From contig JANOSY010000085.1 in NCBI GenBank assembly GCA_031416075.1, positions 1-64,000 on the forward strand: a stretch of 64,000 bases of DNA, given 5' to 3'. This DNA comes from Candidatus Tenderia sp. (lineage in GTDB: Bacteria > Pseudomonadota > Gammaproteobacteria > Tenderiales > Tenderiaceae). The stretch's first letter is position 1. Each line of letters begins with the position of its first letter. The position numbers were made by a program, and so were the translations under genes. Shown here in pieces: positions 8,285-45,608 of the stretch. The notes under the pieces are model-generated. The model was not told where the DNA came from, searched no databases, and saw only the letters and a program-made list of their open reading frames with translations.

Positions 8285-8320
8285 TACGGTCTGATGGAAT
8301 AGTTTGATGATTTCGGCTCA

Positions 8321-8350
8321 CGTCCCCTTTGTATTTGTATAAGGGGGACG
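8321..8350. terminator. Hairpin between convergent catalase and GGDEF/EAL genes
   Basis: cgtcccc...ggggacg stem. Confidence 0.6.
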
Positions 8351-8404
8351 GTAGAGCTGATGCTTTTTATACGCTGGCTGGTTATACGTTGGCTGGCAGT
8401 GTGA

Positions 8405-18151: not shown

Positions 18152-18154
18152 GGT

Positions 18155-21708: not shown

Positions 21709-21712
21709 CGGC

Positions 21713-23566: not shown

Positions 23567-23571
23567 GGTGA

Positions 23572-25170: not shown

Positions 25171-25194
25171 GGTCTATTCCTCTGCCGATGCCGA

Positions 25195-27726: not shown

Positions 27727-27736
27727 GGTCTCTGCC

Positions 27737-28711
27737 TCACTTGCGGATCAGTTGTGCCAGGGTGGTGGCGTTAAAGATGAATGGGCGTACCAGGTTGTTG
27801 ACGCTGACGCGGCGCGGGTTGACGATCAACTCGCGTGCCGCTGTCAGGCGGATGGCGACTCGGGCCAGCAGGGTGCGCGCCAGCTCGGCGGCGGTGATGG
27901 TCAACTCCTGACGTGGTGCCAGCGCGTTGTTGTCATCACCCAGGGTGTAGAGCAGACGGGCAGCGAGCTGGAGCTGCTCTTTTTCACTGCTGCTGGCGGC
28001 GTCGATCTGGTCGCGCTCCCCCTGGCTGAGTCGGTTGGCGAGGTCGGTGTCCCACGCCGGCAGGGCGTTGTGGGCGGCAAAGGGGTGGTCGCCCGTGGCA
28101 GCGTCAGCGGGGCGCTCCGCCACCAGTTCAAACAGTACACAATCCTGAAGGCGGCTCGGCTTGACCGCATCGGTGCTGGCGTTGACATCGGTGGCCAGTA
28201 CCGGTTGCAGGCCGCTGGGGTTCTCCTGGTAACGCATGGTGACCTTGAGCCAGAGCAGGTCTACGGTCTCACTGGCGATGGTAGTCTGTTCGTAGCCGTC
28301 ACGGATCAGGGCCCCCCAGCGGTCGTTCTCTGTGTCTTCGAACTGGCTGGTGAGCCAGGCACCCAGGTCGATGCAGTAGGGTTCGGAGACGGTGACTTCG
28401 CGCCCCAGGCCGTCGACGCCGATGCCGGGTGAGACATGCAACCGGACTCGGGCGGGGGTGACATCGTCGCCTGGCTCGTCGCCCGGATCGTCGCCCTTGG
28501 CGTTGATGCGTAGCCCGGCCACGGTGCCGCTGCCGTGCAGCCAGTAGCCGTGGCGGTTGAGGTGGCGACGGTGGTACTCCTGCTCGGCGCGGGTCGCCTC
28601 CAGCCCCAGCAACATGCCGGGTTGGTAACTGACCCGCTTGAGAGCGGCCTTGAAGTCGGCATCGGCGGCTAAACCGGCGTCTTGCAGTTCCGAATTGTCA
28701 GATTGGCTCAT
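27737..28711 (-). CDS. CIS fibre/baseplate-attachment-like protein (paralogue 1)
   Basis: RVSYQPGMLLGLEATRAEQEY...GTVAGLRI...VSPGIGVDGLGREV; AAGGAG SD. Confidence 0.7.
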   Translation of the reverse strand: MSQSDNSELQDAGLAADADFKAALKRVSYQPGMLLGLEATRAEQEYHRRHLNRHGYWLHGSGTVAGLRINAKGDDPGDEPGDDVTPARVRLHVSPGIGVDGLGREVTVSEPYCIDLGAWLTSQFEDTENDRWGALIRDGYEQTTIASETVDLLWLKVTMRYQENPSGLQPVLATDVNASTDAVKPSRLQDCVLFELVAERPADAATGDHPFAAHNALPAWDTDLANRLSQGERDQIDAASSSEKEQLQLAARLLYTLGDDNNALAPRQELTITAAELARTLLARVAIRLTAARELIVNPRRVSVNNLVRPFIFNATTLAQLIRK

Positions 28712-29121
28712 GCCAGAACTCCTTTTTGATGTTGCGTGCTGCCAGGTTTAAATCCCCCCTGGCCCCCCTTTTTCAAAGGGGGGAAGGGTAAGAGGGTGGT
28801 GCAGACGCCGTCACTAAAACTAAACACCATCATTTCCTCTTTTGAAAAAGGGGGTAAGGGTAAGAGGGTGGTGCAGACGCCGTCACTAAAACTAAACACC
28901 ATCATTTCCTCTTTTGAAAAGTGGGGGAAGGGTAAGAGGGTGGTGCAGACATCGTCACTAAAACTAAACACCATCATTTCCTCTTTTGAAAAGTGGGGGA
29001 AGGGTAAGAGGGTGGTGCAGACGCCATTACTAAAACTAAACACCATCATTTCCTCTTTTGAAAAGTGGGGTAAGGGTAAGAGGGTGGTGCAGATGCCATC
29101 GCCAAAATTAAGCACCATCAT
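28708..29121 (-). CDS. Possible 137-aa repeat peptide (5x MMVFSFSDGVCTTLLPFPHFSKEE-like); translation unproven
   Basis: Open frame across the array with ATGA overlaps to both neighbouring genes. Confidence 0.3.
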   Translation of the reverse strand: MMVLNFGDGICTTLLPLPHFSKEEMMVFSFSNGVCTTLLPFPHFSKEEMMVFSFSDDVCTTLLPFPHFSKEEMMVFSFSDGVCTTLLPLPPFSKEEMMVFSFSDGVCTTLLPFPPLKKGGQGGFKPGSTQHQKGVLA

Positions 29122-29156
29122 TCCCCCCTTTGAAAAAGGGGGGTTAGGGGGGATTT
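28750..29156. repeat. Five tandem 72-bp units enclosed by 36-bp inverted palindromic repeats
   Basis: Units start at 28786, 28858, 28930, 29002 and 29074. 28750-28785 matches the reverse complement of 29121-29156 at 34/36 nt. Confidence 0.95.
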
Positions 29157-29507
29157 AGTGCGGGCAAACTCAAAAATCATAGCCAACACCGATTCCGTCT
29201 CTTTCATCACCTGTGTGTTATCAAAGCGCATCACCTGCAACCTCTGTTGCCGAAGAAAGTCATCCCGTTCCTGATCATGCTTCAGTGTGTTCTGTTCAAA
29301 ATGTTGTCCACCATCCAGTTCAATCACCAAGCCAATTGCAGGTGCGTAAAAATCCACGATGAACTGACCTATTGGCTTTTGCCGATAGAATTGCACTCCT
29401 AAAATTTGCTTCCGTCGCAAATGTTGCCACAACAGCTGCTCCACATCCGTCATGTTGCTGCGCAGTTGGCGGGAATAGGATTTTAGGTGTGGTTCGTACC
29501 TCAGCAT
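29118..29507 (-). CDS. DUF559 / Vsr-like endonuclease domain protein
   Basis: RQLRSNMTDVEQLLWQHLR, FYRQKPIGQFIVDF, IELDGGQH, DQERDDFL..MRFDN. Confidence 0.92.
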   Translation of the reverse strand: MLRYEPHLKSYSRQLRSNMTDVEQLLWQHLRRKQILGVQFYRQKPIGQFIVDFYAPAIGLVIELDGGQHFEQNTLKHDQERDDFLRQQRLQVMRFDNTQVMKETESVLAMIFEFARTKSPLTPLFQRGE

Positions 29508-29531
29508 TGGTTTTTCCTTGTTCCTGATCCC

Positions 29532-31934
29532 TTAGTCCCTTAAATCCCCAACCGCCCCAGCATGCTCCGGCGCGAGCGCTACCGGGTTTTGTATCAGGTG
29601 GCCACGGCCGAGGTGGGTGCGGTCGAGCTGCACCCGGCCCGGGGCCGGTTCCTTTTCTAAATAGGTGTCGATGCGCAACAGCGGCGACAGCCCGAGTACA
29701 AATGGGTGGTCGCTCTCCAGCAGTTGCCACTGCACCACGGCCGGTACCAGGCTGGGCAGCGCATCGGCCACCACCTGACGCAGCCGGCGGGCCGGGCCGT
29801 GCAGCACCACGGTCAGGCGGCGGGCGTAGTGGTCGAAAAAGCGCTCCACCGTGTCGCGCTCGAGCGTGCCCACGGCCAACTCCGGCGCAAACAGGGCGAG
29901 AAATTCACGGGAGTGGTCGTCGGCCAGGATCAGGCTCTCACCAACGATGCTGTTGCCGGACTGGCCGGTGCCGAGGGTCAGTGGGTGCTGGGCGTCATCC
30001 ATCTCGATGCCGAGAATGGTGCTGAGGGTGCGGCGCAGCCGGAACAGCTCCACCGGCACCACCTCGCCACGGCGCACACCGCCGTCGGTGATGATGTCGA
30101 GCGCCCGGCAGAGCCCACCGAAGCTGCCATTCTGCCGTTGCAGATTTCCCTGTTGCGCCAGCCAGAGGCGCTGGCGTGGTTCCGGCCAGTGCGGTGGCAG
30201 GCGGGTGGCGTTGAGCTGTGCTAGCCATGGCAGAAAAGGGGCCGGGGTGGCATCCGGGTAGAGCAGTGTTTCGGCGGCGGCGATGCGCTCTTCAATCGGC
30301 GTCATCATCCCTTCAAAGCAGGCCAGTAGCCGGTCGCGCAGGTCGGCGCCGTTGGCTGCTTCTGTCACTATGGGGGTGGCGGTTGGCAGTGGTTGTTGCT
30401 GATGAAAGTGGCTGGGCAGAAAATTGGCCTGCCACGAGAAGCGTGGATACCAGGCACGAATGGCGTAGATGGCTGGGGTGTGGCGACCATCACCGGAGAG
30501 GGTGAGCCGCAGCCGCAGGTAACGTCCGGCCAGATCGCGCACCGCGCCGTTGCTACGTTGTAGCAACACCTCGAAGAGTCCCTCACGTTCTGGCACTGGT
30601 GTGAGTGCCGCCGTCGCAAAGGGGAGTTCGGAGGTGATCGGTAGCCACGCCGGGTCTGGCTGTTTTTCCCAAGGGTGGGCTGACGGATTGCGCCACACTT
30701 CGAAGGCGTGGGCCTCTATCTCGATACGGCAACCGGACGGGATACACGCTTCTATATATAGTCGGTGCCAGACTGTGCCAGGGGTGCTGGAGTCGAGTGG
30801 TTGGGTCAGTACGGCACTGGCGCGGTGTGGGAAACGGGCCTGGGCCAGACGGTAGAGCGGTGTCACCCCCTCGTTGGTCATGGTGCGGACGCCGTTGTCG
30901 CGGTGGCGTACAAAACGAACGCCTCTGCCGGTATCGGCCTCGGAACGGCGCGGCCAGCGTTCCGGCAACAGTTGGGCCATGGCCGTGCCGCTCTCGCTGG
31001 TATTGAGATAGAGCAGTGGGCAGTCACGCTCCTGACCACGGCGTGTCCCCTCTTCGAAGGGGGGCAGTAGCAGCAGTTGATTGGTGGCGACGCAGCAGAT
31101 GTCGGTGGCCAGAGGTAGCTCTGCCGGGAGTGGGTAGAGGGTGAAAGAGGTGTTGGCGGCGGTGGTCACTGGTCGTGCCAGCAGCTGTTGTTGATGGGGG
31201 TCTGTGGCATCCCGCACCAGTAGCACCACGCTGTTGTCGTCCGCTGCTAGTGCCATCAGTCCGCCGTGTGTGGGTAGTGGCTGTTGCCACAGTAGCCGCA
31301 GTGGATCGGGGTTGATCTGCTCCGGCTCGAAGCGGTCACCACGGGGGGTGTAGGGCTGGGGCAGCGGCGCACCACGGCAGAGACCGAGCTGGGTTTCACC
31401 GGCGATCCAGGTGCGGTCCTCACCATCGACCCAGGCCCGCAGCGGCGCAAATGGCAGGGGGCAGCTGAGCTGCCAGCGGTGTCGCAGGTGCAGCAGTAAC
31501 AGGCCATGGTCATTTGCCCCATCGCTGTAGGGCAGTGCCACCAGACCGCTGCCGCCAAGGTGAAGATCGGTGAATAGGGTGGCCCTTGGCGCATCCACCG
31601 GGTCAAGCGTGACGGCGGCGGCAGTGTCGGCAACGCCACCCTCGATGGCGGCCCGCACCGGTTGCCACTCTGTGCCGGGCCAACTCAGCGACCACTCAAA
31701 GCGGCGGCGGTCGCCGCTGAGGCGGCCGATCTGGCCGTGGTCGTCGAGCACATAGGGGGTGGCGTCGCGCCAGAGCTGCTGGGTGCGGCTTGGGTCGAGG
31801 TGTGGCAACCGTGGCTGGTCCTGACGCGCCAGTGTGAAGGCCCCTGCCAGCGGATTCCAGCCGCAGTCGCGACGGGCGCTGCGAAAATCGCTGGGCCCTT
31901 TGATGAGTACAAAACGGCTGCCGTTGCTGTCCAT
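29532..31934 (-). CDS. Baseplate wedge / P2 gpI-like tail protein (Afp12-like)
   Basis: Follows baseplate J; GRYLRLRLTLSGDG, LPSHF, P..TPAPFLPWLA motif, GSFGGL..ALDI. Confidence 0.75.
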   Translation of the reverse strand: MDSNGSRFVLIKGPSDFRSARRDCGWNPLAGAFTLARQDQPRLPHLDPSRTQQLWRDATPYVLDDHGQIGRLSGDRRRFEWSLSWPGTEWQPVRAAIEGGVADTAAAVTLDPVDAPRATLFTDLHLGGSGLVALPYSDGANDHGLLLLHLRHRWQLSCPLPFAPLRAWVDGEDRTWIAGETQLGLCRGAPLPQPYTPRGDRFEPEQINPDPLRLLWQQPLPTHGGLMALAADDNSVVLLVRDATDPHQQQLLARPVTTAANTSFTLYPLPAELPLATDICCVATNQLLLLPPFEEGTRRGQERDCPLLYLNTSESGTAMAQLLPERWPRRSEADTGRGVRFVRHRDNGVRTMTNEGVTPLYRLAQARFPHRASAVLTQPLDSSTPGTVWHRLYIEACIPSGCRIEIEAHAFEVWRNPSAHPWEKQPDPAWLPITSELPFATAALTPVPEREGLFEVLLQRSNGAVRDLAGRYLRLRLTLSGDGRHTPAIYAIRAWYPRFSWQANFLPSHFHQQQPLPTATPIVTEAANGADLRDRLLACFEGMMTPIEERIAAAETLLYPDATPAPFLPWLAQLNATRLPPHWPEPRQRLWLAQQGNLQRQNGSFGGLCRALDIITDGGVRRGEVVPVELFRLRRTLSTILGIEMDDAQHPLTLGTGQSGNSIVGESLILADDHSREFLALFAPELAVGTLERDTVERFFDHYARRLTVVLHGPARRLRQVVADALPSLVPAVVQWQLLESDHPFVLGLSPLLRIDTYLEKEPAPGRVQLDRTHLGRGHLIQNPVALAPEHAGAVGDLRD

Positions 31935-31937
31935 GGC

Positions 31938-34115
31938 TTAGCAGATATCCGGGATGACGGGGACGGGCACGGGCCGTTTGCCGCTGCTGCTGCCGGTAGT
32001 GGTGCCGGGGGCAAAACCGCGTGGTGGCAGCGGTTGTGCCTCGCCGGGCTGCATGGCGACCGCCATCAGCTGTGGCAACTGGTAGTCGCTGAGTGGCAGC
32101 GCCTGACTAGAGGTCAACTCGCGCCACTGCAGGCTGGTGAGATCCTGATAGAAGAGGCGCAGGCCGTTGACTGCTTCAACGCCATCGACCCGCCCGGCCT
32201 GGGTCCGCAGTTCGTTGATCTCGACACTGCGCCCCAGCGGCCAGCCAGCACCCCGCAGCCCATGGGGTGGCAGCGGCCAGAGGTAGTGCAGCAGCGCCTC
32301 TTCCACGGCGCGCAGGGTCTGCTGTTCGGTGGCAGGATCAACCACCTCGAGGGAGAGGGCGATGGCGACCGGCTGGTACTGGGGGCTGAGCACGTAGAGT
32401 TCGGTGCCGAGCAGGGTGCGGGCGCTGAGATATTCGTAGATATCGCGGATCATGCCGACGCTGGGACGCGGCACCTGCCCCAACGCCGGAGCGATTGGCG
32501 GCAATACAAAAAGGCTGATCACCCCTGGAATATTGCGGCGCACGGCGGAGAGGCTGGCGCCGGGGAAGAATCCGGGCATGGCGTTGGCGCGGGCGACGGG
32601 CCGTAGTGGGTTGTCGAGCGCCAGCACGGCAAAATCGTCCCCCGTAACAGCCCGGTCGCGGTGGCTAAGGAAGGCGGGGATGCGCCGTTCCGCTGCAGCG
32701 ACGCCCTCGCGGTCGACGCCGCCACGGGTCGGCCACTCGTGGCGCACCTTGAGTTTGCCCGGTGCGGCATCCACGGTGGTGATCGATTCGCTGGGCAGGT
32801 TGCCACTGCTGCCACCGCCGTAGCGGTAAGTGGCGGCGCGGATGCGGGCGTTGGCGGCGGGGCGTCTGCCACGAATGCCGTCGCCGAAGCGGATCTCGCC
32901 GCTGCTAGGGCCGAGGGTGTAGACGCGGTCATCGGGGCCACTGCCAGCAAAGTGGCTCACCCGCTGCCAGACAACAAACTGGCGCAGCTCCTCGACACCG
33001 ATCTCGATGCTGTTTTCATCAATGTCGGTATGCGGCAGGGTGAGAATCTGATCGGGTTGACCGGTACCGCTGCCGACAACCAGGTCGCGGGCGACACCGA
33101 CCCCTTCCACATCAACCGCGTTAACGCCAAGATAGCCCAGCTCCAGATCGTCATCGGCGCAGCGCAGCCGCAGCCAGAAGAGCAGCTGGCCGGGGGCGAG
33201 GTCGGCGGGGGGTTCTGGCGGGGTCTCTTCGAAACCGGCAAACTGCGGATCGATAGCCTCGGGCAGGGTGAGCATCTCGACGATGCGTGGCAGGCGCAGT
33301 CGCGCCACGCCGCTGCGGCGACCGCCCTGGGAGCTGTCGGCCACCACCTCCAGCGGCAGGTAGGTCACTTCGGCCGGTTTGGTGGCGTCCGGCCACCAGG
33401 CCAGGTCCCACTGGAGACGGCGCGGTGCCAGGGTGGTGGTAAGCTCGCCGTCGATCTCGGTCTGCGGTGCCAGACCGATGTTGAGTGTGATGCCCGCCAG
33501 ATTACGCAGCAGTTTGTCGCGGTTAGGGATGAGCTGGGGCTTTTTCAGCGCGAGGGCGAGGTAGAGCGCGCCATCGGCCGTGCCAACGGTGGTGATCGGG
33601 TCACGCCCCGGCGTCAGGCTCACTGGGCGGAAGGCGCTCGGCTCTACCCCATATTGGTTACGTAGTTGCTGCAGGCTGATCCCTTCGGCGGTCAGCAGGC
33701 TGATATCGAGTGTTGCCTTGACCAGCAGCCGCAGCTCCAGCGGTGTGGCTTGCAGTTCGCCAACGCTGGAGAAGGTCACTTGGCCAGCCTTGAGGGTGGT
33801 CTCGCTGCGCAGCAGTGGCGGCAGCTGGGTATCGTTGCTGACAGCGTCGATGCAGACGATGCCACGGGCCGGACGGGCGGGGCGCAACGGGATCTGCAAC
33901 AGGTTGAGGAAGGCGCGCTGCTGGCGCTCCGGAATGCGGTTGGCGCGGTAGATGACGGTCTCGGTGAGCCAGGCAAAGAGGTCAACAAAGGCGTGCACCG
34001 GATCACCAGGGGCGAGCTGGGTCAGCTCCGGCAGCTGCCGCAGCAGCCGCGCCTGGAGTTCGGCGCTGAGGTCGTCGAAGCGGCGGTCGTCGAGGTCAGG
34101 GATGGGCAGTGGCAT
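31938..34115 (-). CDS. Baseplate J-like protein (Afp11-like)
   Basis: MPLPIPDLDDRRFDDL, IRFGDGIRGRRP, YRYGGG..GN, RDRAVTGDDF, GWPLGR. Confidence 0.92.
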   Translation of the reverse strand: MPLPIPDLDDRRFDDLSAELQARLLRQLPELTQLAPGDPVHAFVDLFAWLTETVIYRANRIPERQQRAFLNLLQIPLRPARPARGIVCIDAVSNDTQLPPLLRSETTLKAGQVTFSSVGELQATPLELRLLVKATLDISLLTAEGISLQQLRNQYGVEPSAFRPVSLTPGRDPITTVGTADGALYLALALKKPQLIPNRDKLLRNLAGITLNIGLAPQTEIDGELTTTLAPRRLQWDLAWWPDATKPAEVTYLPLEVVADSSQGGRRSGVARLRLPRIVEMLTLPEAIDPQFAGFEETPPEPPADLAPGQLLFWLRLRCADDDLELGYLGVNAVDVEGVGVARDLVVGSGTGQPDQILTLPHTDIDENSIEIGVEELRQFVVWQRVSHFAGSGPDDRVYTLGPSSGEIRFGDGIRGRRPAANARIRAATYRYGGGSSGNLPSESITTVDAAPGKLKVRHEWPTRGGVDREGVAAAERRIPAFLSHRDRAVTGDDFAVLALDNPLRPVARANAMPGFFPGASLSAVRRNIPGVISLFVLPPIAPALGQVPRPSVGMIRDIYEYLSARTLLGTELYVLSPQYQPVAIALSLEVVDPATEQQTLRAVEEALLHYLWPLPPHGLRGAGWPLGRSVEINELRTQAGRVDGVEAVNGLRLFYQDLTSLQWRELTSSQALPLSDYQLPQLMAVAMQPGEAQPLPPRGFAPGTTTGSSSGKRPVPVPVIPDIC

Positions 34116-34119
34116 AATC

Positions 34120-34515
34120 TTAGGCTCCAAGTTCCAGTGCCAGGTTGAAGCTGTCACGGCTGCCATCGTGACGCAGCCGGTAGCGGATCGACAGGTTTGC
34201 ATGGGAGAGGCGCAGCGGGTCGGGGACCAGGCTCACCTCCTCCAGGATCACCCGCGGCTCCCAGCGTGTCAGGGCGCGCTGGGCGGCGTCGACGATGAGG
34301 GCACGGGTTGTTTCATTATTGGGGTAGTGGATGAAATCAAGCACGCCGGTGCCAAACTCGGGGCGCATCAGCCGCTCGCCGGGGCGTGTCAGCAGGATGT
34401 TGAGCATCACCTCACGAATGCTGGCGTTGCCCGTCTGCCACTCTAGTCGGCCGCTTTTGGTGACGCCGTCGAAGAGTGGAAAGCTGGTGAGTCGCTGTCT
34501 GTTACTGTCCATCAT
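34120..34515 (-). CDS. gp25/GPW baseplate protein (Afp9-like)
   Basis: ILLTRPGERLMRPEFG, ALTRWEPRV. Confidence 0.93.
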   Translation of the reverse strand: MMDSNRQRLTSFPLFDGVTKSGRLEWQTGNASIREVMLNILLTRPGERLMRPEFGTGVLDFIHYPNNETTRALIVDAAQRALTRWEPRVILEEVSLVPDPLRLSHANLSIRYRLRHDGSRDSFNLALELGA

Positions 34516-34576
34516 TACCCCTTAATCGCACTTGGTGGGTCTTCTCAGTGAAGTGCGGTGTTTTGTTCTGTTTGGT

Positions 34577-34795
34577 TTATAGTTTTTCGCCGTACTCTTT
34601 TTCAAATTCCATTTTTAAATAATTGATTATTCCCTCCATTCGGTCGGTCTCTTCGCAGATTTCCGCCGCGTCATCTTCTCCGACTGTTTCTAGGTCAATA
34701 GCCAAATTGGAGGAAATTTTTTCTTCCAATGCTTCTATAACCAGCCGCCAATCCCCCATGATCATGGGGAGTGACAATCCATCAAGCTTATCCAT
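34577..34795 (-). CDS. Small acidic helical protein; candidate Tsi2-like immunity protein
   Basis: 72 aa, strongly D/E-rich, two amphipathic helices, start overlaps the toxin stop by 8 nt. Confidence 0.6.
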   Translation of the reverse strand: MDKLDGLSLPMIMGDWRLVIEALEEKISSNLAIDLETVGEDDAAEICEETDRMEGIINYLKMEFEKEYGEKL

Positions 34796-35207
34796 TTTGA
34801 ATTTCCTGTGGTGTGAGCTTTACGCATTTGGTTGTGTCTGAACCCAACTCTTGCAGTAAACCTAAATATTTCATAAGAGGCATATCCTTGTCGGGCGCAA
34901 TCATGAAATGTCCTTTTTTAGTAGGTGTTCTATCGTGCACGATTTTCAATTCTGAGGGGATCAAAATCCCCTTTTTTATTTTCCAGACATTCTTACCTTG
35001 ACGCTTCATTCCTGACGTAATGTGATCGAATGTGGAAAAGCCGTTGCCGTTAGCTCTTACGTATGTGATGCCAGATTTTTCGTACGTGGAGATATCTTTG
35101 AGTGCGCGGTTTTGACTAAAGTTAGGACTTAACGAATTACCACTACGGAATAATGGTATTTGCAAATCATCAAAATTTTCAATAAATAACAGTTCAGTGT
35201 TTATCAC
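34788..35207 (-). CDS. Tse2-like ADP-ribosyltransferase-fold toxin
   Basis: LFRSGN, GFSTFD, WKIKKG..IP.ELKIVHD, GHFMIAP..DMP..KY pattern with an R21-S58-H100 triad. Confidence 0.7.
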   Translation of the reverse strand: MINTELLFIENFDDLQIPLFRSGNSLSPNFSQNRALKDISTYEKSGITYVRANGNGFSTFDHITSGMKRQGKNVWKIKKGILIPSELKIVHDRTPTKKGHFMIAPDKDMPLMKYLGLLQELGSDTTKCVKLTPQEIQNG

Positions 35208-35249
35208 TTAGAACCCCTAATATTTGTGTTTTGAAAAGTTGAACGATGA

Positions 35250-36932
35250 TCATTTGTTCTCACTTAATAGTTTTCCGCAGAGCCGGGGCAGGGCGAGGAA
35301 AGCCCACGGCAGCCAGCGGAAGATGAGGTTGAGCAGATTCATGACAATCATCAGCAATACAAAGGCGCAGATGGTGACAACCGGGATGCTTAGGCTGAAG
35401 TTCCAGCAGAGTCCGGTGGGGTTGCCGGGGCCACCTTGCTCCATCTTCATGTCGGGTTTGATCTTGCGTAACAGCTCGGCGATGGACTTGGGGACCACCA
35501 GTGTGACCCCTTTGGCAGCGCCGCGTTTGATGTCATTGAGCCCCGGCAGGATCACGGCGCGCGGACGCTGCGCCTCGGGGTCGAAGGGCGAGACAACACG
35601 AAAATCGATGCTGCCCTGCTGGCCCCAGTGAATCTGTTCGCAGCCGCACTCGTCCTGCCAGCGTACAAAGGGCACGACAAAAAAGGTGTCGTCATCGCCC
35701 TGGCCAAAACGGGGCATCGCCAGCCCTTCCTCCATTACCACCATGGCGCGGCCGCCACGCAATAGCAGGGTGTCGCGTAGCCTTTGGGCCTGCTGCTCGG
35801 TGATGAAGAGGTCGTCGTTACGCAGGCTGGTGCTGGCCACACTGCCATTGCTGTTGAGCGTGGAGCTTGGCAGCGGGCTGCTGGCCAGGGTGGTTTTGGC
35901 GATGGCAATGTTACTCAGCCACTCCAGCAGGGCGTCGCGGCTGGTTTCGATCCAGCTCAGCAGGTTCTGACCTCGGGTGGCGACGGGCGGCACGGCGTAA
36001 GGGTCCAGAGGAGTGGGTGGATTGGCGAGCAGCTGCGGGTAGAAGTGGATCTCTGCCAGCTGGCGGCGCAGTTCGCCGTTGTCGGCATCCTGTTCGAAGA
36101 TGCGGTAGCGTATCAGCAGCAGTTCCAGCAGTTCGTAGAGCGCGGTGGTGGCGTGGCCCCGAAAGGCGGGGCGGTTGTCCTGCTTGATCCAGCTGTGCAG
36201 ATTGCGTTCGCCAAAGGGCCAGATCAGCTCCTGACGCAAGGCGTTGGTTGCCTCGGCAGGGGCTTGGTTGGTGTTGTTACTGGAATTGTTACTTGAATTA
36301 TTGTTGGCGCGATAGCTGCCGCCGAGCGGCAGGTACCCCCACAGCAGGGTGCGGCTGCGGCTATCGTTGTTATTGGGTTGTTTGCTGCGTATCAGTAGTG
36401 GGTGCAGTGGGTAGCTCTCTTCACCGCTATAACCTGGCTCCGGGTATTGCGGTTGCACCAGCTTGTGGTTGAGGAAGCGGCGATAGTCGTCCGGTTCCTG
36501 ACTGGGGATGGCGCCGCTCTGCCAGCCGAGCGCCTGTCCTTCATTGACCATCCAGCGCTGTACTGCGCCGCTGGCGCCGCGGCGGCGGATCACAAAACCA
36601 GCGGAGCTGATGCGCTGGGGATCGAAGGCAGGTTTACCGGCTGCGCTGGCGGCGTCGCAGCTCACCTCGCAGCAGACGGTGTAGAAGGTCTGGTGCATCG
36701 GCAGGCGCAGGGTGGGCAGATCCTTGCGGCCAAAGCGGTCGCCGTTGTACCACCCCTGGGCGCGTGTGGCGGTGAGGCGATTGCTCATCGCTTCCTGCAC
36801 AAAACGTTGTACAAACTGGTCGTCGAAATAGCGGTGCAACGTCATGCCTTCGTCGCTGCCGGCAAACCAGGGGTGATGCAGCAGCGGGCTGTGGACCACG
36901 CTCGGCTGCACTTTTTTAGCGGCGCTTACCAT
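35250..36932 (-). CDS. Spike-coupled hypothetical protein with a C-terminal hydrophobic (TM) segment
   Basis: ATG 36932 overlaps the spike stop; LSIPVVTICAFVLLMIVMNLLNLIFRWLPWAFLAL near the C-terminus. Confidence 0.75.
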   Translation of the reverse strand: MVSAAKKVQPSVVHSPLLHHPWFAGSDEGMTLHRYFDDQFVQRFVQEAMSNRLTATRAQGWYNGDRFGRKDLPTLRLPMHQTFYTVCCEVSCDAASAAGKPAFDPQRISSAGFVIRRRGASGAVQRWMVNEGQALGWQSGAIPSQEPDDYRRFLNHKLVQPQYPEPGYSGEESYPLHPLLIRSKQPNNNDSRSRTLLWGYLPLGGSYRANNNSSNNSSNNTNQAPAEATNALRQELIWPFGERNLHSWIKQDNRPAFRGHATTALYELLELLLIRYRIFEQDADNGELRRQLAEIHFYPQLLANPPTPLDPYAVPPVATRGQNLLSWIETSRDALLEWLSNIAIAKTTLASSPLPSSTLNSNGSVASTSLRNDDLFITEQQAQRLRDTLLLRGGRAMVVMEEGLAMPRFGQGDDDTFFVVPFVRWQDECGCEQIHWGQQGSIDFRVVSPFDPEAQRPRAVILPGLNDIKRGAAKGVTLVVPKSIAELLRKIKPDMKMEQGGPGNPTGLCWNFSLSIPVVTICAFVLLMIVMNLLNLIFRWLPWAFLALPRLCGKLLSENK

Positions 36933-37570
36933 AGGTTGCCCGCCCCTGGTGTGTAGCTGCTGGAGACTACGGCGTTGCTGATCAGGGTGTCGCACTGCAC
37001 TACGCCGGAGAATTTGCTCATGCCGGCATCGACCTTGACCATGCTGGCTGTGATATCCACCTGGCTGGCCTGCACCGTGACCTTGGCGGAGCTGGTGATG
37101 CTGATGCCGCTGGCGCTCATCTCGATCTTCTCGCCGCCCTTTTCGAGGGTGACGGTGCCGCTGCCCGCGTCGGTGATGGTGAGGTGGTAGCCCGCCGGGG
37201 TCTTGATCTCCACCTTGGGGGCTTGATCATCAAGTAGCACCTGGGTGCCGGCCGGGGTCTGGATCAGGTAGCGCTCCTCCACCGGTGCAGCGTCATCGGG
37301 CTGGCTGCTGCTACCACTCCAGACCGCGCCCAGCACCATGGGCAGATTGGGGCTGACAAAGGCCAGCACCACCTGTTCATTCTGGCGTGGCAGCTGGCTG
37401 ACGCCGTAGCCGTTGCCAGCGCTGGCGACGATGACGCTGGCCCACAGCTCCAGTCCGGTAGCGTGCAGCTTTACCTGGATGCGGCCACGCGACTCCGGGT
37501 CGGCATTGTCGAGCACAATGCCGAGGTGGAGGTCGTTGAGGCTACCGAGGCTGTGACCGTTCATGTTCAT
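36926..37570 (-). CDS. Spike protein: gp5/gpV OB-fold plus beta-helix (VgrG C-terminal half)
   Basis: DPESRGRIQV, WASV...GNGYG...P...EQVVLAF...PMVLGAVW, then beta-strand repeats. Confidence 0.9.
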   Translation of the reverse strand: MNMNGHSLGSLNDLHLGIVLDNADPESRGRIQVKLHATGLELWASVIVASAGNGYGVSQLPRQNEQVVLAFVSPNLPMVLGAVWSGSSSQPDDAAPVEERYLIQTPAGTQVLLDDQAPKVEIKTPAGYHLTITDAGSGTVTLEKGGEKIEMSASGISITSSAKVTVQASQVDITASMVKVDAGMSKFSGVVQCDTLISNAVVSSSYTPGAGNLW

Positions 37571-38628
37571 GGATTCCAGTCGGGGCGCTGGACGCGCAGG
37601 CGGGTGCGCAGGCCGTTTGCCATATCAAACTGGTGCCAGCACTCCATCACCCGATAGCGCCCGGCCAGGCGCGGCGAGACGTTGTTGAGCTGGACCTCGC
37701 GGCCACTCTTCAAGGCGCTGTTGCCCTGGCAGATGATCTCGCCATGGAGGAAACGGTTGGCGCGTTGGCGGAACTGTTTGGTCGCCAGGGTCTCGGCCTC
37801 CTGCTGGGCGCGGGCGAAGGGGTGGGGCAGGGTTGATTCACTCTGCCAGCCCAGATCGGAGAGCAGGGTTGCGCCGGTTGTGCCGCTGGGGGCGGGGGCG
37901 ATGCTGGAGCTGCTGCCGCTGGCCTCGCTGTCGTCCGCCAGATTGTAGCCGCTGACCTTGACTTCACTCGGTTGCCGGTTGAGGTCGGCGATGATACGAA
38001 TATTGATGGCGGTGGCGGGGTCGAGTGCCACCGGTTCGGGGTCGGTCTCGTCGTCGCGCACCCGCAGTTGGCCGTTGTGCAGCCGCAGCCCCACGTCATA
38101 GCTGCTGAGCTGACGCATCAGAAAGGCGAGGTTGCTCTCGTTGACCTGGAGCCAGGTGGCGCTGCCGGAGGCGACGTTGACGTCACTCTGGAGGTTGGCC
38201 TCCCCAGCGATCTGCTGAACCACATCGTTCAAGCTCATCGATTCAAAGACGCGGTTGTGGCGCTGCCGCGCCAGCCGGTGCAGCAGATCTTCGGCGAGCA
38301 GGATAAGTTGCGGGGCACCGTCGCCATAACGCTCTTCGATGGCGGTGATCTCGCCGCTGAAGGCGCTGCTTTCGGCATTTTCACCCAGCAGCAGTTCGAT
38401 GCGGCTGCCCAGGCGAATATCCTGAAACAGAAAATCGGGCTGGCCGCTGCTGCCTGATCGATCACTGGCCCCCCAGTTGAGCAGGCGCACCTCGGCGCTG
38501 GCCATGCCAAAACGTGGCAGATGGATCTGCATCGAAAGCGCGGCCTCACCGAGATTGGCGCGGACGTTGCCATCGATGCTGATGCGCGGCCGGACGTTGA
38601 GCAGTGACAGGTCGTTAGTCGATGGCAA
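37567..38628 (-). CDS. gp27/late control D-like hub protein (VgrG N-terminal half)
   Basis: FSGEITAIE, QVNESNLAFL, GN..LKSG..V.L..V..RL.G.Y.V..C.H.FD. Confidence 0.88.
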   Translation of the reverse strand: MPSTNDLSLLNVRPRISIDGNVRANLGEAALSMQIHLPRFGMASAEVRLLNWGASDRSGSSGQPDFLFQDIRLGSRIELLLGENAESSAFSGEITAIEERYGDGAPQLILLAEDLLHRLARQRHNRVFESMSLNDVVQQIAGEANLQSDVNVASGSATWLQVNESNLAFLMRQLSSYDVGLRLHNGQLRVRDDETDPEPVALDPATAINIRIIADLNRQPSEVKVSGYNLADDSEASGSSSSIAPAPSGTTGATLLSDLGWQSESTLPHPFARAQQEAETLATKQFRQRANRFLHGEIICQGNSALKSGREVQLNNVSPRLAGRYRVMECWHQFDMANGLRTRLRVQRPDWNP

Positions 38629-38779
38629 GGCGGGCCCTCCTCTCTTGCAGCAGCTCCAGCAGATTGATCATGGACTGTTTCTCCTGCTCCTCGGTGGGGC
38701 GTGGTTCACCCTCGCCAGCGCCGTCGTGCTGTGGCGCTGCTTCGACATTGGCAATCATCTCGTTAATCACAACCGCCAT
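38615..38779 (-). CDS. 54-aa small CIS protein (Afp6-like), not in the ORF track
   Basis: Hand-translated MAVVINEMIANVEAAPQ...LLELLQERRARLAID*; fills the gap exactly, with a TGATG overlap upstream and an overlap into the hub gene. Confidence 0.75.
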   Translation of the reverse strand: MAVVINEMIANVEAAPQHDGAGEGEPRPTEEQEKQSMINLLELLQERRARLAID

Positions 38780-39483
38780 CAACGACCTCCGCTCTGTGCG
38801 CTGCTGTTGGGTACATTGACGCCGTTGTCTGGCGTGGTGCGTGGGTTTTCAAGGTTGTTGGCGTCGGCCACGCCGCGCCAGTCACGCGGGTTTTGACCGG
38901 CAGCCTGGGTGGCCTGCGCGGCGCTGACACCCGCACCACCGGGGGTAAACTTGGGCAGCTCGCGCACGGCGGCCTGTACGGCTTCGTCCATATCAAACTG
39001 GTAGCGATCCTCCTTGAGGTTGAGTGCTAGGGTGGCGCGCAACGGAATCCCCTCAGGGGCAAAAAAATCGAGGGTCTCGCTGTAGCTGGAGACCATGCCG
39101 CTGAACTGGAAGCTGCCCCACTGAAAGCGGCAGCGTTTGGGCGCCTTGGGACGTTTGGAGTTGGGCTCCTGCGGCTGCATGAACTGCTCGGCGATGCGTC
39201 TGGTCTGTTTGCGCACGTCGGAGTTGGCCTGTACCGCTTTCCACTTGATGGTGGTATCGAAGAGTAGCTCTACACTCAGGTTGGATTCGCTCTTTTCGAC
39301 AAACTGGGCGGCGTTGCGGCTGCCGCCACTGCCACCTTTGTTGTCGGCCTTGAGGCTGTTGGATAGGGTGACCTTGAGCGTGGCCGGATTGAACTGCACC
39401 TCGATATGTTGGTTTTCGTCGGTGACAACCTTGTCGCCCTCCATCGGGATCAGTTTGGCATGTGCGATCTTGATGTCAGCCAT
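38779..39483 (-). CDS. Afp7-like tube initiator with a degenerate LysM domain
   Basis: VQFNPATL, LSVELLFDT, P..CRFQWG, FFAPEGIPLRA, WRGVADANNLENPR. Confidence 0.88.
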   Translation of the reverse strand: MADIKIAHAKLIPMEGDKVVTDENQHIEVQFNPATLKVTLSNSLKADNKGGSGGSRNAAQFVEKSESNLSVELLFDTTIKWKAVQANSDVRKQTRRIAEQFMQPQEPNSKRPKAPKRCRFQWGSFQFSGMVSSYSETLDFFAPEGIPLRATLALNLKEDRYQFDMDEAVQAAVRELPKFTPGGAGVSAAQATQAAGQNPRDWRGVADANNLENPRTTPDNGVNVPNSSAQSGGR

Positions 39484-39489
39484 TTTTTT

Positions 39490-39975
39490 CTACTTCGTTC
39501 CTTGTGTGGGAGGCCGTTCCAGGGTCAGCCCCTCATGCACCAGATGCAGCTCCTCCACGGCCACCTGACTGGCAGTGGCGGAGAGATCGGGACCCTTGAA
39601 TTTGGTGGGCAGCACGTTGATAAGATTCCAACGCAAGGCGGGCTCTCCTGAGGGGAGAAACACCTCGATCATGCCGCTGTAACGCAGGCCATAGTTGGCG
39701 CTGCGGGTGGTGGTTTCGAACCAGCTCCAGAGATGGTCGATGTCGGTGATGCCGCGCTTCAGGATCACCGGCGGAAAGGTGACCGGACCGGAGAGCTGCA
39801 CCTCGCCCCAGTTGCGGCCACCCTCTTTGTGGGTTTTGGGTGTCATGCTCGCCTCCAGTCCGGAGACCTCGCTGAAGGCTCCCTGGCACAGCTCCTGGCT
39901 GACATCCGCGCTGTCGAAAAGGGTGACGCGGAAGCGAAAGGGGATGAATTCACCGGGTACGCTGTCGTCAGCCAT
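39490..39975 (-). CDS. Tail tube protein 2 (T4 gp19-like, Afp5-like)
   Basis: FRFRV, FSEVSGLE, EGGRN, LKRG, P.KFKGP.LSA..SQVAVEEL. Start ATG 39975. Confidence 0.9.
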   Translation of the reverse strand: MADDSVPGEFIPFRFRVTLFDSADVSQELCQGAFSEVSGLEASMTPKTHKEGGRNWGEVQLSGPVTFPPVILKRGITDIDHLWSWFETTTRSANYGLRYSGMIEVFLPSGEPALRWNLINVLPTKFKGPDLSATASQVAVEELHLVHEGLTLERPPTQGTK

Positions 39976-41557
39976 TGGCAACCTCAATGTCGGTGCTGGT
40001 CCCGGTGCTGTGGCGATTCTGCATGAAGGTGATACGCAGCCGGTCGATGGGGTAGGCCGGGGCGATCTCGATATCGAAGGCGATGAGGTTGTCGCCATCA
40101 TTGCGTTGGGTCAGGGTGAAACCATCCTCAGCCCGGCGACCGCGCAGTGCGCCGAGGCCATGGAGCCGGGTGAAGAAGGCACGCAGCGCCAGCGCCGGAC
40201 GTGGGTCGCGTGGATCGACATCAAAGATCATCCGTTCGCCCAGCCCCTGGAGTTCACGCCGTAACCAGCCCATAAAACGCATGATCTCGGCGGAGCGCCA
40301 GTGTTCGTCGTTGCGTCGTTCACTACTGAGTTGTTGCAGTGCGGCGGCGGGCAGACACGGTGCACACATCCGTTCGTCATCCACCACGGTGCGGCTGGCG
40401 CGGTGCAGCAGCACAGTTACGCCGGGGCGGTTGCGCAGTGCCGTGGCGCCCTGTTGATTCAGCGGCGGCCACGGCAGGCAGCGCCCCGGCAGCGGCCGGG
40501 CACCGATGGAGCGCCACGGGCCGTGCTGCTGGCTCACCATCGCCTGCATTCCGGCGACCAGACCTACGGCTGTACCGAGTCTGCGGTCCGGTCCACGCAG
40601 ATAGGGGTAGAGCAGTTGCAGGTGACGGATGGCCTCGGTCAGGGTGCCGCGTGACCCATCAACCAACAGACCATCGTCATCGATGCCGACGGCCTGGGCG
40701 AGGCAGTCGAGAAACTCGGGGGCCGGACCGGGGCGTTCACTGCCGGGGATGGCGGCGAGCGCCACGCTCAGCAGACACTGCATGTCGGGGCGCAGCCGCG
40801 CCAGGGTGCGGGCGATGGGAGTCACCACCTCACGCGAGGCGAGGGGTTCAGGCATTTGCGGGATTTCGTCCGCGTGGCGTCGTTCGCGGTGGCCGTCGCC
40901 CAGATCGGCACCGCAGGGCAAAAAGACCGGTGGTGGGCTGTCGAGACGTACTCTTGGAATATCTTCAAGGTGGGATGGAATCTGTAATCGTTCCAGGTCC
41001 GGCAGCGCCAGTATGCCCGCCCGTGGAATCAGCAGCGCCCGTTCAAAGGGGCCTAATGTCTCTGGTTCGACCATGTTGGCGTTGGCCGTTGGCAGGAATG
41101 GTTGGCTGCCTGCCGCTTCATCGACGCGGATGATCCAGAGTTTGAGTGTCTGGCCATCGCCGCTGCTTTCAAAAAAATCCTGCACTGCCAGTGGTAGCCA
41201 GGCATGTTCGCCACCGAGCACGCTGCGATACTGCGTGGCGGTCTCGAAGGTGTCGGGGAAGAGCGCCTGAAATTGACCAAAGGAGTAGAGCGGGATCGGC
41301 AGGTTGTAGAGCGCCAGTAGCGTTGCATCGTCTGCCGTTGCCGGGACGCCTGCTGCCAGGTCACGCAGACGTGAACACTCCTGAGTGAAGCCAAGCTGAG
41401 TAATCTCGGCCAGCAACATTGCATCGCTGGCAAGCCGCCGCCACTGGATGCGCTCTGCGGGCGATGGACAGTGGCCGATCATCACCACCTCCAGCACGGT
41501 CTGTGCCGGAGGTGTCGGACGGGCGTCGAGTTCGATGCGGTTGTCGGCGAACAGCAT
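39968..41557 (-). CDS. Divergent second tail sheath protein
   Basis: PIPLYSFGQF...LAVQDFF...WIIRV N-terminus; RFMGWLRR...IFD...GALRG...IAPAYPI C-terminal sheath pattern. Confidence 0.7.
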   Translation of the reverse strand: MLFADNRIELDARPTPPAQTVLEVVMIGHCPSPAERIQWRRLASDAMLLAEITQLGFTQECSRLRDLAAGVPATADDATLLALYNLPIPLYSFGQFQALFPDTFETATQYRSVLGGEHAWLPLAVQDFFESSGDGQTLKLWIIRVDEAAGSQPFLPTANANMVEPETLGPFERALLIPRAGILALPDLERLQIPSHLEDIPRVRLDSPPPVFLPCGADLGDGHRERRHADEIPQMPEPLASREVVTPIARTLARLRPDMQCLLSVALAAIPGSERPGPAPEFLDCLAQAVGIDDDGLLVDGSRGTLTEAIRHLQLLYPYLRGPDRRLGTAVGLVAGMQAMVSQQHGPWRSIGARPLPGRCLPWPPLNQQGATALRNRPGVTVLLHRASRTVVDDERMCAPCLPAAALQQLSSERRNDEHWRSAEIMRFMGWLRRELQGLGERMIFDVDPRDPRPALALRAFFTRLHGLGALRGRRAEDGFTLTQRNDGDNLIAFDIEIAPAYPIDRLRITFMQNRHSTGTSTDIEVANG

Positions 41558-41560
41558 TGC

Positions 41561-42019
41561 TTACTCCTGGGTGACCATCTCGACCGACAGCACCAGCTCT
41601 TCAATCGCCACATCACCGCCGCCCTTGGCGGTGAGGGTGGGGCCGGTCCATTTGATGGGCATGGCGCTGACCAGTTTCCAGGTGACGACGGTGCTGTCAC
41701 GGTCTTCGCTCTGGAGTTTGATAACGATGTTGCGCTTGGCCTCCTTGAGGTTGCCGTTACGGCACTTCTCCAGCCATTCGTAGAGGTTCTGTGCGCCAAT
41801 GACACCACGCTTGAGGGTGACGTCCCCGGCCTTGTGGATGCCGGGCAGTTTGTTGACATAGTTCACCTTGGAGTTGCCGGCGCGGTATTCCGCAACGGTG
41901 ACCTCGGCGTTGAGGCCTGAGACCTCTGAAAATCCGGCCTGAATCTCCTGGCCCTGGCCGGGTTCGATCTCCACCAGAAAGTTGAAGGCGGAGTAGGGTG
42001 TATCGCGTAAAGTTGCCAT
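41561..42019 (-). CDS. Major tail tube protein (T4 gp19-like, Afp1-like)
   Basis: PYSAFNFLVEI, GFSEVSGL, EYRAGN, KLPG, VTLKRG, P.KWTGP.L.A....VAIEEL. Confidence 0.95.
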   Translation of the reverse strand: MATLRDTPYSAFNFLVEIEPGQGQEIQAGFSEVSGLNAEVTVAEYRAGNSKVNYVNKLPGIHKAGDVTLKRGVIGAQNLYEWLEKCRNGNLKEAKRNIVIKLQSEDRDSTVVTWKLVSAMPIKWTGPTLTAKGGGDVAIEELVLSVEMVTQE

Positions 42020-42045
42020 CTATTCAGATCTCCTCGTAATCGCTA

Positions 42046-44202: not shown

Positions 44203-44232
44203 GTCGCTATTCTCCTTCCGTTGAACTAACGG

Positions 44233-45021
44233 TTACGTTGATTTAAGAACGATTAGGGTGTGATTCGGACTGACAACTTTGGCAACGGTCCCTGGTGCTA
44301 TTGCCAGATTGAGCGTTTTAACAAACAGGCTGTTGCCACCACTGTTTTTGCCGTTGGCGATGTCGACTTGGGTGAGTGTATCCGGGTCAACAAGCGCTTC
44401 AGGCGCTGTGGAGTGCAGAGCCTTAACTTCAAGTGTTGCGCTGTAGGTTGTGGTGGGTGCATCTTTGGTGAGAGCAGGCAGGCGGTTCAGTGGCAGAGAG
44501 AATTCGCCATGAATATCCGACTGGGCGACAAATTTAAGCGGTGCACCGAGTGAGGGTGTCACTGTCAGTGTTATGAGTGCCCATGCTGCGGTGTTGCCAT
44601 CATCAAAACCTACTTGACCATAAATGCCGCCAGCATTGCTGAAACGTGCCCCAAAAGGTGAGTGGTAGAGCGAAACCTGATGTTCGCTGTTGGAACCTAT
44701 AGTGAAGGAGAATATACGTGGCAGATAGCGGCCAGAGGGGTCGGAGACGTTGCCGTCGATTGGATAGGATGTGATCGATTGTGCCGTTTTGTCTGCGTCG
44801 GTTGCAATGCCCTTAACGACCTTCGATGGTCCGGCGCTGTTTTTATGCCAGAGTAAAGTGCCTTGAGGTTTGTGGTGTACGTAGAGCGCTTGTGGGGCTC
44901 TGTTAAATTCGATACGTAAGGTTGCAGGGGGGATGCGCTGAGGTGGTTTGTTGGCGAAGCCGCTGCGTTCGTGCCACTCGACCAGATCACCTCCGTGGAT
45001 GATTAATGTTTCGGTAATCAT
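44233..45021 (-). CDS. Beta-rich hypothetical protein between cap and sheath (possible cap adaptor)
   Basis: ATGA-coupled to the DUF4255 gene; Ig/carboxypeptidase-regulatory-like strand pattern. Confidence 0.6.
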   Translation of the reverse strand: MITETLIIHGGDLVEWHERSGFANKPPQRIPPATLRIEFNRAPQALYVHHKPQGTLLWHKNSAGPSKVVKGIATDADKTAQSITSYPIDGNVSDPSGRYLPRIFSFTIGSNSEHQVSLYHSPFGARFSNAGGIYGQVGFDDGNTAAWALITLTVTPSLGAPLKFVAQSDIHGEFSLPLNRLPALTKDAPTTTYSATLEVKALHSTAPEALVDPDTLTQVDIANGKNSGGNSLFVKTLNLAIAPGTVAKVVSPNHTLIVLKST

Positions 45022-45608
45022 TTGTTGTTCTCCATACGTGTATCCATAGGATAAACGAGGGTTTTGACTAATGGCCCTTCGTCACGTTCATCATCAGGGG
45101 ATAGCCGTAATGTTTTGATGATGTAGGGAACAGATAGGCGATATCCACCAGGAAAGCTATCCCACAGACGGGTGAGATCCTCGGTGCTCATCTCTTCAGG
45201 TATCACTTGTACCGAGTCGGTCTCCCCCCAGCTTGGGTCAGCGATGCCAACTTCAGCAATGCCGAGATTCATGGCGCTGCCGATGATTTGCATGGCGGTG
45301 GAAAGATAGGTGACTTCAGCTTCGTTTTTGTCGCTCCAGCCGACCAATAAAATATGCAGATTAACCGGCAGTTCAGGGCGTGGAGTTTTTCTTCCCTCGG
45401 CGGCGGCCAGATGGCGGTTGCGGGCGTAAGGATCCACGGCGATTCGATAGAGGTAGATGCCCAGCGATTCAGAGGTGGGTGTTCCGCTTAACTCTTGCGA
45501 ACCCAGCAGTTTGACGTTTGGATTGCCGCCAAGTAGGGCGGCCATGCGTAGCGACAGGCGCTCTTTTAACGCTTGTAAGACCCCCATGCTTGCACGATAT
45601 CCAGCCAT
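45018..45608 (-). CDS. DUF4255 tail terminator/cap protein (Afp16-like)
   Basis: LGIYLYRI..D...RN, LPVNLHIL, LTRLW...YRLSVPY; first gene of the operon. Confidence 0.9.
   Translation of the reverse strand: MAGYRASMGVLQALKERLSLRMAALLGGNPNVKLLGSQELSGTPTSESLGIYLYRIAVDPYARNRHLAAAEGRKTPRPELPVNLHILLVGWSDKNEAEVTYLSTAMQIIGSAMNLGIAEVGIADPSWGETDSVQVIPEEMSTEDLTRLWDSFPGGYRLSVPYIIKTLRLSPDDERDEGPLVKTLVYPMDTRMENNK

Follow-up and report, generated by a model that had tools for sequence, protein, structure and literature searches.

Is a toxin gene that lies inside the operon of an extracellular contractile injection system (eCIS) ammunition for the particle or a passenger of the DNA? The question is raised by a 64,000-nucleotide stretch of Candidatus Tenderia sp. 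DNA (contig JANOSY010000085.1 of assembly GCA_031416075.1, positions 1 to 64,000 of the forward strand), which was analyzed at its full length and is called the window below. In the spike-baseplate region of its eCIS operon lies a cassette of two small genes (34577..35207) that a preliminary description, made from the letters and their open reading frames (ORFs), had likened to the Pseudomonas pair Tse2-Tsi2, a type VI secretion system (T6SS) effector and its immunity protein, and had explained as such a pair recruited as tube cargo. The first protein is a Tse2-family toxin, and the cassette is an insert at a junction that carries no gene in related eCIS operons. With modest confidence, we lean toward a mobile effector-immunity cassette of the Tse2 family, addictive by its nature, that arrived in the eCIS island by chance and whose toxin, if it is exported, uses the T6SS of the host.

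Both genes are on the minus strand. The toxin gene (34788..35207) starts with GTG and encodes 139 amino acids (15.7 kDa; isoelectric point, pI, 9.38), and the cognate immunity gene (34577..34795) starts with ATG and encodes 72 amino acids (pI 4.05, with 20 Asp and Glu and 7 Lys and Arg residues). The ORF list bears out both reading frames and the 8 nucleotides that they share (34788-34795). R21, S58, and H100 lie in the motifs LFRSGN, GFSTF, and GHFMIAP, where the preliminary description had placed them, and its spot counts of GC content were exact, with 23 of 60 bases at 34921-34980 versus 41 of 60 at 18241-18300. Over the whole span, 250 of 631 bases are G or C (0.40), versus 0.615 for the eCIS operon (14552-45608); the chromosomal flanks are at 0.48-0.50. 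At third codon positions, the GC content is 0.40 in the toxin gene and 0.45 in the immunity gene, versus 0.77 in the following baseplate gene, gp25, and 0.76 in the preceding gene, which we call X.

Family, fold, and predicted pocket residues identify the 139-residue protein as a Tse2-family toxin, as had been proposed. It matches the Pfam family ADPRTs_Tse2 (PF18648) over residues 35-127 with 46.6 bits (E value, 6.7e-12), above the curated cut-off of 26.6 bits. Against the Protein Data Bank (PDB), a profile of 15 relatives gave Tse2 (5ako_C; E value, 0.02) as the sole match, and a phmmer search with the single sequence gave no meaningful match. The AlphaFold2 (AF2) model has a predicted local distance difference test score (pLDDT) of 89.9 and no segment below 50. 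Foldseek ranked 5ako_C first with a probability of 1.00, and the two structures align over 114 of the 139 residues with a Z score of 10.8, a root mean square deviation of 2.5, and about 21% sequence identity over the structural alignment. Tse2 is the clear top match of the model, and the lower-ranked ones are other proteins with the ADP-ribosyltransferase (ART) fold, namely, KptA/Tpt1 (Z scores of 5.3 to 4.1), Tne2 (3.8), and diphtheria toxin (3.8). NCBIfam and PADLOC had no match for the toxin or the immunity protein.

None of the 15 aligned toxin sequences, which go down to 28% identity, deviates at R21, S58, or H100, and the window toxin retains all 15 positions that are invariant in the family. 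The catalytic pocket of Tse2 has been predicted to consist of R14, T79, S80, and H122 (10.64898/2026.06.15.732508). The profile alignment pairs S58 with S80 and H100 with H122 (the chain numbering being offset by 21), and the spacing from S to H is 42 residues in both proteins. For R21, equivalence to R14 is judged from position within the fold rather than from a printed alignment, and the position of T79 is taken by F57 in the window toxin; three of the four predicted pocket residues are thus retained. Native Tse2 has 158 amino acids and is longer than the window toxin, in which the segment from R to S appears to be shorter.

For the smaller protein, the comparison stands in part. The preliminary description had called it Tsi2-like, and it is indeed acidic, helical, and predicted to sit over the toxin pocket, but it has no detectable sequence similarity to Tsi2. 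Neither a single-sequence phmmer search nor a profile matched a Tsi2 sequence in the PDB, where the profile found only de novo TIM-barrel repeats and coiled coils. The protein belongs to no Pfam or NCBIfam family, and Pfam detects no DNA-binding domain in it. Its AF2 model (pLDDT, 87.6) is a plain two-helix hairpin with helices at residues 13-31 and 40-68. Tsi2 entries rank at the top of the fold search (3stq_F with a Foldseek probability of 0.97, a TM score of 0.75, and a Z score of 8.1), but the E values are at least 0.8 and unrelated hairpins, with a Z score of 7.9, are practically tied. The immunity protein is Tsi2-like in kind, and with a fold match that does not discriminate, homology to Tsi2 is open. 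In gene order the two pairs agree, since in the Pseudomonas aeruginosa pair (PA2702/PA2703, belonging to the H1-T6SS) the toxin gene is also followed by one for a small acidic helical protein, with a pI of 4.1 (PMC3325213).

Prediction of the toxin-immunity complex gave a score of 0.81 (0.82, 0.66, and 0.81 in the individual runs), versus 0.01 for the best of three controls, a pass that may reflect mere likeness, since the Tse2-Tsi2 complex (5AKO) has already been solved. Of the solved complexes, 58 of 80 reach the mark used for this score, as do 2 of 110 mismatched pairs. At least 90% of the contacts are shared between the runs, and the pLDDT of the partner is at least 87. In the predicted interface, residues 21-25, 58, and 100 of the toxin, that is, its pocket, face residues 40-62 of the immunity protein, in its second helix. 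The model therefore supports an immunity protein that binds the toxin over its pocket, as has been reported for Tsi2 (reviewed in PMC6099711). In all loci examined, a small acidic gene lies directly 3' of the toxin gene, and over six of them the identities of toxin and immunity protein to the window pair fall jointly (63/56, 54/24, 46/24, 38/19, 38/19, and 28/15%; Spearman coefficient, 0.99).

How the cassette came to its place can be read from its borders. Aligned to the two closest uninterrupted junctions (L059 and L060), the inserted segment (34516..35249, no strand assigned) comprises 734 bp with a GC content of 0.398 and is a clean insert between the stop codon of X (35250..36995, minus strand, 581 amino acids in the ORF list) and the start codon of the gene for the gp25-like baseplate wedge (34120..34515, minus strand; PF04965, E value 7e-21). 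The two genes are preceded in it by a leader of 42 bp and followed by a tail of 61 bp, which carries a Shine-Dalgarno-like AAGGGG before the gp25 start. We gathered related junctions in which X, recognized by its C-terminal hairpin, lies next to gp25 (n = 14), and the slot is empty in all of them. The spacers are 123 to 177 bp in family-level relatives (L017-L019), 1 to 25 bp in metagenome contigs (L059-L064), and about 90 bp or less in the loci from the class sample (L021-L025), the last estimated from ORF ends and match starts. The two closest loci, with gp25 proteins 85% and 83% identical to that of the window, have spacers of 1 and 5 bp and the same X tail as the window (...LPRLC.KLL.E..). 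The insert thus leaves X whole and is confined to the space between X and gp25. Hidden Markov models (HMMs) built for toxin and immunity protein had no match in 124.6 kb from 17 eCIS-related loci, with the window itself matching as a control. Because all 14 junctions are empty and the HMMs found nothing, the X-gp25 junction is not a variable cargo slot, and the insertion is a one-off event.

A search for target-site duplications or terminal repeats gave AATGAT at both edges and a 15-nucleotide direct repeat (13 of 15 positions, family D3) linking the 3' ends of X and the immunity gene; both were treated as chance, because ten families of similar quality occur within the same 1.2 kb. No contig from the sequencing runs was seen to skip the cassette; the sole joint reported in them, from 34109 to 34351 (side 33, run X5), lies within gp25 and is probably that of another organism.

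The cassette itself is mobile. Toxin relatives at 53 to 90% identity were found in Pseudoalteromonas, Sessilibacter, Rheinheimera, Pantoea, Methylomonas, Cellvibrionaceae, and Parabeggiatoa records; nearly all have 139 amino acids, and each is followed by an overlapping small acidic gene. The two-gene unit thus recurs in other genomes with the identical 8-nucleotide overlap and a conserved start context. Its surroundings differ from case to case: a 3.9-kb contig with Mob_Pre and Rep3, that is, a small plasmid (L007); a P2-like prophage in an IMG/VR contig with GPD, GpU, tape measure, and Bro-N genes (L072); the neighborhood of a transposase (L010); a site between ggt and a GNAT gene (L009); and one between a sigma factor gene and a CheY-like gene (L008). 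More distant pairs lie between housekeeping genes. None of these relatives has CIS or T6SS structural genes as neighbors within the stretches read. At the DNA level, cassettes resemble one another over the two ORFs plus about 10 to 30 nucleotides upstream and no further. The genome of the window has a second Tse2-like pair (C90:4762-5082), 42% identical and with its own acidic partner of 72 amino acids. In the prophage, the cassette (8001-8643, toxin 83% identical) adjoins a SRAP-domain gene and lies between the early region with Bro-N and the tail region with GPD, GpU, and tape measure genes.

Some copies are decaying. The toxin gene is broken by a frameshift in L008 and by a stop codon and a frameshift in L010, with the immunity gene intact in both. 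At another locus (L042, G385:C110), an orphan immunity gene of the window type (73 amino acids, ...LSIPMIMGDWRLIIEALEEK...) lies directly after a different Tse2-like pair. Retention of immunity genes after loss of the toxin is the pattern expected of delivered toxins, where it would protect from incoming toxin.

If the toxin is delivered, which machine would deliver it? The host has a T6SS, with a TssC gene on contig C56 and two orphan Hcp genes (C92 and C17), as well as a second CIS locus with Pvc16_N (C8:50053-50562). The window cassette is not linked to T6SS genes, in a genome with a T6SS and Hcp. This resembles PA2702/PA2703, which lies away from the H1 cluster. In a class sample of 401 genomes, the Tse2 family occurs in 8, and TssC is present in 6 of these, versus 84 of 400 genomes overall. 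Five additional carriers, reached through their loci, all have TssC, which gives 11 of 13, the window genome among them, versus 84 of 400 (21%). The enrichment is significant for genomes (Fisher's exact test, P = 0.0014), among which kin are not independent, and for genera (binomial test, P = 0.02). The background counts include genomes flagged as unpublished, namely, G311 (for TssC) and G055 (for Pvc16_N and gp25).

Several marks of eCIS cargo were looked for. With 139 amino acids, the window toxin is exactly as long as its plasmid and chromosomal relatives, and neither the comparison with relatives outside CIS loci nor the model, which has no low-confidence segment, shows an N-terminal extension. 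Effectors of the Photorhabdus virulence cassettes (PVCs) carry an N-terminal packaging leader. Among the best 150 of 417 Tse2-family clusters, nearly all proteins have at most 210 amino acids, and none of the 18 longest carries a PAAR, Hcp, VgrG, Rhs, or DUF4157 domain. The cassette lies in the middle of the operon, between X and gp25, and about 16 kb from the eCIS_core/DUF4157 protein; the usual marks of eCIS toxins are a DUF4157 domain and a position at the 3' end (Geller et al. 2021, PMC8213781). The proposed recruitment as tube cargo is not supported, given an empty slot in 14 of 14 relatives, cassettes of the same length outside any CIS, no fusion to a marker domain among those 18 proteins, and a host with its own T6SS and Hcp. 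The further remark that an immunity gene is unusual for an eCIS is true only in part, since toxin-immunity pairs adjoining eCIS operons are already on record in the same study, in which Tse2 appears only as a positive control (PMC8213781). A Tse2-domain protein of Pseudoalteromonas fuliginea has been annotated as a predicted T6SS effector (PMC11882849). No paper was found that places a Tse2-family gene in an eCIS; the supplementary tables of Geller et al., which lay outside the search, might list PF18648.

We therefore picture the locus as follows. A low-GC cassette would have been acquired horizontally and placed exactly at the stop/start junction of the translationally coupled genes X and gp25, as a passenger of the operon and not a part of the machine, with the tail of the insert providing a new ribosome-binding site for gp25. 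The basic toxin would act in the bacterial cytoplasm through an ART-like pocket (R21, S58, and H100), which the 8-kDa acidic hairpin would block with its second helix. Loss of the cassette, or of the immunity gene alone, would poison the cell, and the pair would therefore be addictive and stabilize the DNA that carries it, be it plasmid or prophage or, in this case, the eCIS island. Putative export of the toxin would most likely make use of the host T6SS rather than the eCIS tube, with the toxin inside Hcp rings, the route of Pseudomonas Tse2. Because the cassette is co-oriented with the eCIS genes and its strand has no terminator-like site, it is probably read through together with them. A scan for promoters and terminators found one promoter-like and one terminator-like site, numbers at or below the expectation from shuffled sequences (means of 1.6 and 2.1), and neither site is informative.

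Several observations weigh against this picture. No TssC was seen in 2 of the 13 carriers, one of them 100% complete (G047) and the other 97% (G385), and a T6SS is therefore not obligatory. Pvc16_N is present in 3 of the 8 Tse2-family genomes of the class sample versus 27 of 401 (Fisher's exact test, P = 0.012; genus level, P = 0.066), although the two are unlinked: they are on different contigs in G075 and about 2.8 Mb apart on one contig in G416, and in G003 the copy on the eCIS contig lies 24 kb outside the operon. The cassette is embedded in the operon and is likely coexpressed with the genes of the particle, as would be expected of a cargo gene, too. Contigs of a second study (one of 494 nucleotides covering 35006-35499, with 15 differences; X3 and X4 are the runs, apparently one data set) contain the junction of X and the toxin gene at about 97% identity, which means that the insertion has persisted while strains diverged to some extent. 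Finally, the slot cannot be read in the closest relatives, where G003:C19 ends at window position 36952 and G004:C198 at 29619. X, gp25, and Baseplate_J had no match in G001 to G004, and the assemblies of G003 and G004 break inside the island.

How far these points favor another explanation differs from case to case. The pair might be a pure addiction module, similar to toxin-antitoxin (TA) systems, that has no export and persists because its loss kills or, in prophages and plasmids, because it excludes phages, and that would stabilize the eCIS island in the same way. We regard this as possible, though at a good distance from probable. The cassette is the only accessory module of the 3.9-kb Mob_Pre/Rep3 plasmid, it occupies an accessory region of the P2-like prophage, and no TssC was seen in two carriers. 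Its layout is that of type II TA and plasmid addiction modules, in that both genes are small and overlap, the toxin is basic, and the neutralizer is acidic and predicted to bind directly. In P. aeruginosa, moreover, Tsi2 is essential since Tse2 acts in the cytoplasm of its producer (PMC3325213), and the island of the window contains another low-GC insert (DUF559 plus a 137-residue ORF), which suggests that it gathers selfish cassettes. In type II modules, unlike here, the toxin gene is not first and the neutralizer mostly has a recognizable DNA-binding domain, of which Pfam and NCBIfam find none in the window protein; nor is there a PADLOC match. Against addiction by itself also speaks that 11 of 13 carriers have a T6SS, versus a background of 21%, and immunity genes that outlive their toxin or stand as orphans fit defense against an incoming toxin better.

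True eCIS cargo, with the toxin loaded in the Hcp-like inner tube, the immunity protein protecting producer and kin, and an antibacterial particle whose ammunition is borrowed from the T6SS, appears improbable to us. The co-oriented position inside the operon, the strand free of terminator-like sites, and the retention of the X/toxin junction in the second study would all suit it, as would the modest co-occurrence with Pvc16_N. A 15.7-kDa protein is also of a suitable size for the tube lumen, and Tse2 sits inside Hcp1 rings (10.64898/2026.06.15.732508). Yet none of the 14 related junctions is occupied and 124.6 kb of related loci hold no toxin or immunity match, the composition of the cassette is foreign to the operon, and cassettes of the same length, with no added leader, live in plasmid, prophage, and housekeeping contexts. 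No association with DUF4157 was seen among the 18 longest representatives, and the cassette does not lie at the operon's 3' end, the usual place of an effector, where a DUF4157 protein is present. The T6SS of the host, finally, offers the known route of the family. Compared with toxin-immunity pairs already associated with eCISs, such as the RES-like toxin EAT5 and its Xre-like antitoxin (PMC8213781), the window pair is likewise physically tied to an eCIS operon and its toxin is likewise of a kind that acts on bacteria. Those pairs adjoin operons or sit at the 3' end and are often linked to DUF4157, whereas the window pair lies between two genes of the baseplate region, has no DUF4157 link, and is absent from the related loci. 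Least credible of all is that the cassette is an inert remnant, recently inserted, heading for decay, and without function in the window genome. The broken toxin genes of two close relatives (L008 and L010) and a composition not yet ameliorated to that of host or island would be in line with it, but both ORFs are intact, the 15 invariant positions, the 8-nucleotide overlap, and the start context are conserved, and the same junction exists at about 97% identity in another study.

A mobile effector-immunity cassette, most likely served by the host T6SS, stays our preferred reading. Set beside Tse2-Tsi2, the window pair shares the Pfam family and fold of the toxin, the R/S/H residues of the pocket, and a predicted interface that covers it. 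It differs in the low sequence identity, in F57 at the position of T79, in the immunity sequence, and in its location inside an eCIS operon, and it is known here from sequence and models. From type II modules it is further set apart by the co-occurrence of its family with the T6SS and by the orphan immunity genes.

If the cassette is a passenger, the finding is mostly ordinary. It would mean that the effector-immunity pairs of the Tse2 family move about as cassettes of no more than two genes, on plasmids, in prophages, and at intergenic sites, with a tendency toward genomes that have a T6SS, and that horizontally acquired eCIS islands take up selfish cassettes even at tightly coupled junctions. 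It would also be a warning that a toxin gene inside a CIS operon is not automatically cargo. If, on the other hand, the pair were cargo, this would be the first exchange of an effector between T6SS and eCIS and a directly testable case of an eCIS that attacks bacteria and comes with a cognate immunity gene; for most eCIS toxins, Geller et al. 2021 (PMC8213781) left this point open.

The surrounding eCIS operon (14552..45608, minus strand, GC content of 0.615) was delimited with Pfam scans and is complete. In the direction of transcription, it begins with Pvc16_N (45018-45608), a sheath gene, two gp19-type tube proteins, CIS_tube, the gpD hub, and the gpV spike (36926-37570), followed by X, the cassette, and gp25. 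After gp25 come Baseplate_J, a P2_I-like protein, more large ORFs, an AAA ATPase, and the 3'-terminal eCIS_core/DUF4157 protein. This last protein (14552-18151, 1,199 amino acids) has its DUF4157 domain at residues 175-250 and no other Pfam domain, and it is the canonical cargo candidate of the window eCIS. Its long C-terminal part is unannotated. The operon forms an island of high GC content in a genome of about 0.49-0.50 and adjoins Dyp peroxidase, rhomboid, glnD, and map genes. A genome of the same genus (G003:C19) has the same island at the same site in the same arrangement, with 92% DNA identity.

Gene X, which is specific to this eCIS lineage, has no Pfam family, and a protein atlas returned unnamed clusters only. 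Its annotated start overlaps the gpV spike gene, and the true start probably lies later. The C-terminal hydrophobic hairpin is conserved in L013-L019, L021-L025, and L059-L064. X is invariably found between the gpV spike and gp25 genes, ends in the hairpin ...SIP.VT.CA.ILLMI...L.WLP....LP..., and is translationally coupled to gp25 in relatives. Full-length copies have 739 to 759 amino acids (L017-L019), the other copies being cut by the ends of their loci. The hairpin may insert into membranes, in the spike/baseplate region of a CIS that is termed "extracellular."

The second low-GC insert in the operon also has two genes (28732-29560, 829 bp, GC content of 0.478). An ORF with a DUF559/Vsr-like endonuclease domain (29118-29507; Pfam E value, 6.7e-33) overlaps a Cys-rich ORF of 137 amino acids (28708-29121), and the DUF559 ORF has weak PADLOC matches to DpdF and mREase_II. 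In G004 C198, the flanks of this segment (92 to 93% identity) are joined by just 17 nucleotides, and the 829 bp are thus an insertion in the window. An additional dip in GC content, to 0.518 at 20501-21000 versus about 0.65 on either side, lies inside an eCIS ORF of 534 amino acids (20104-21708).

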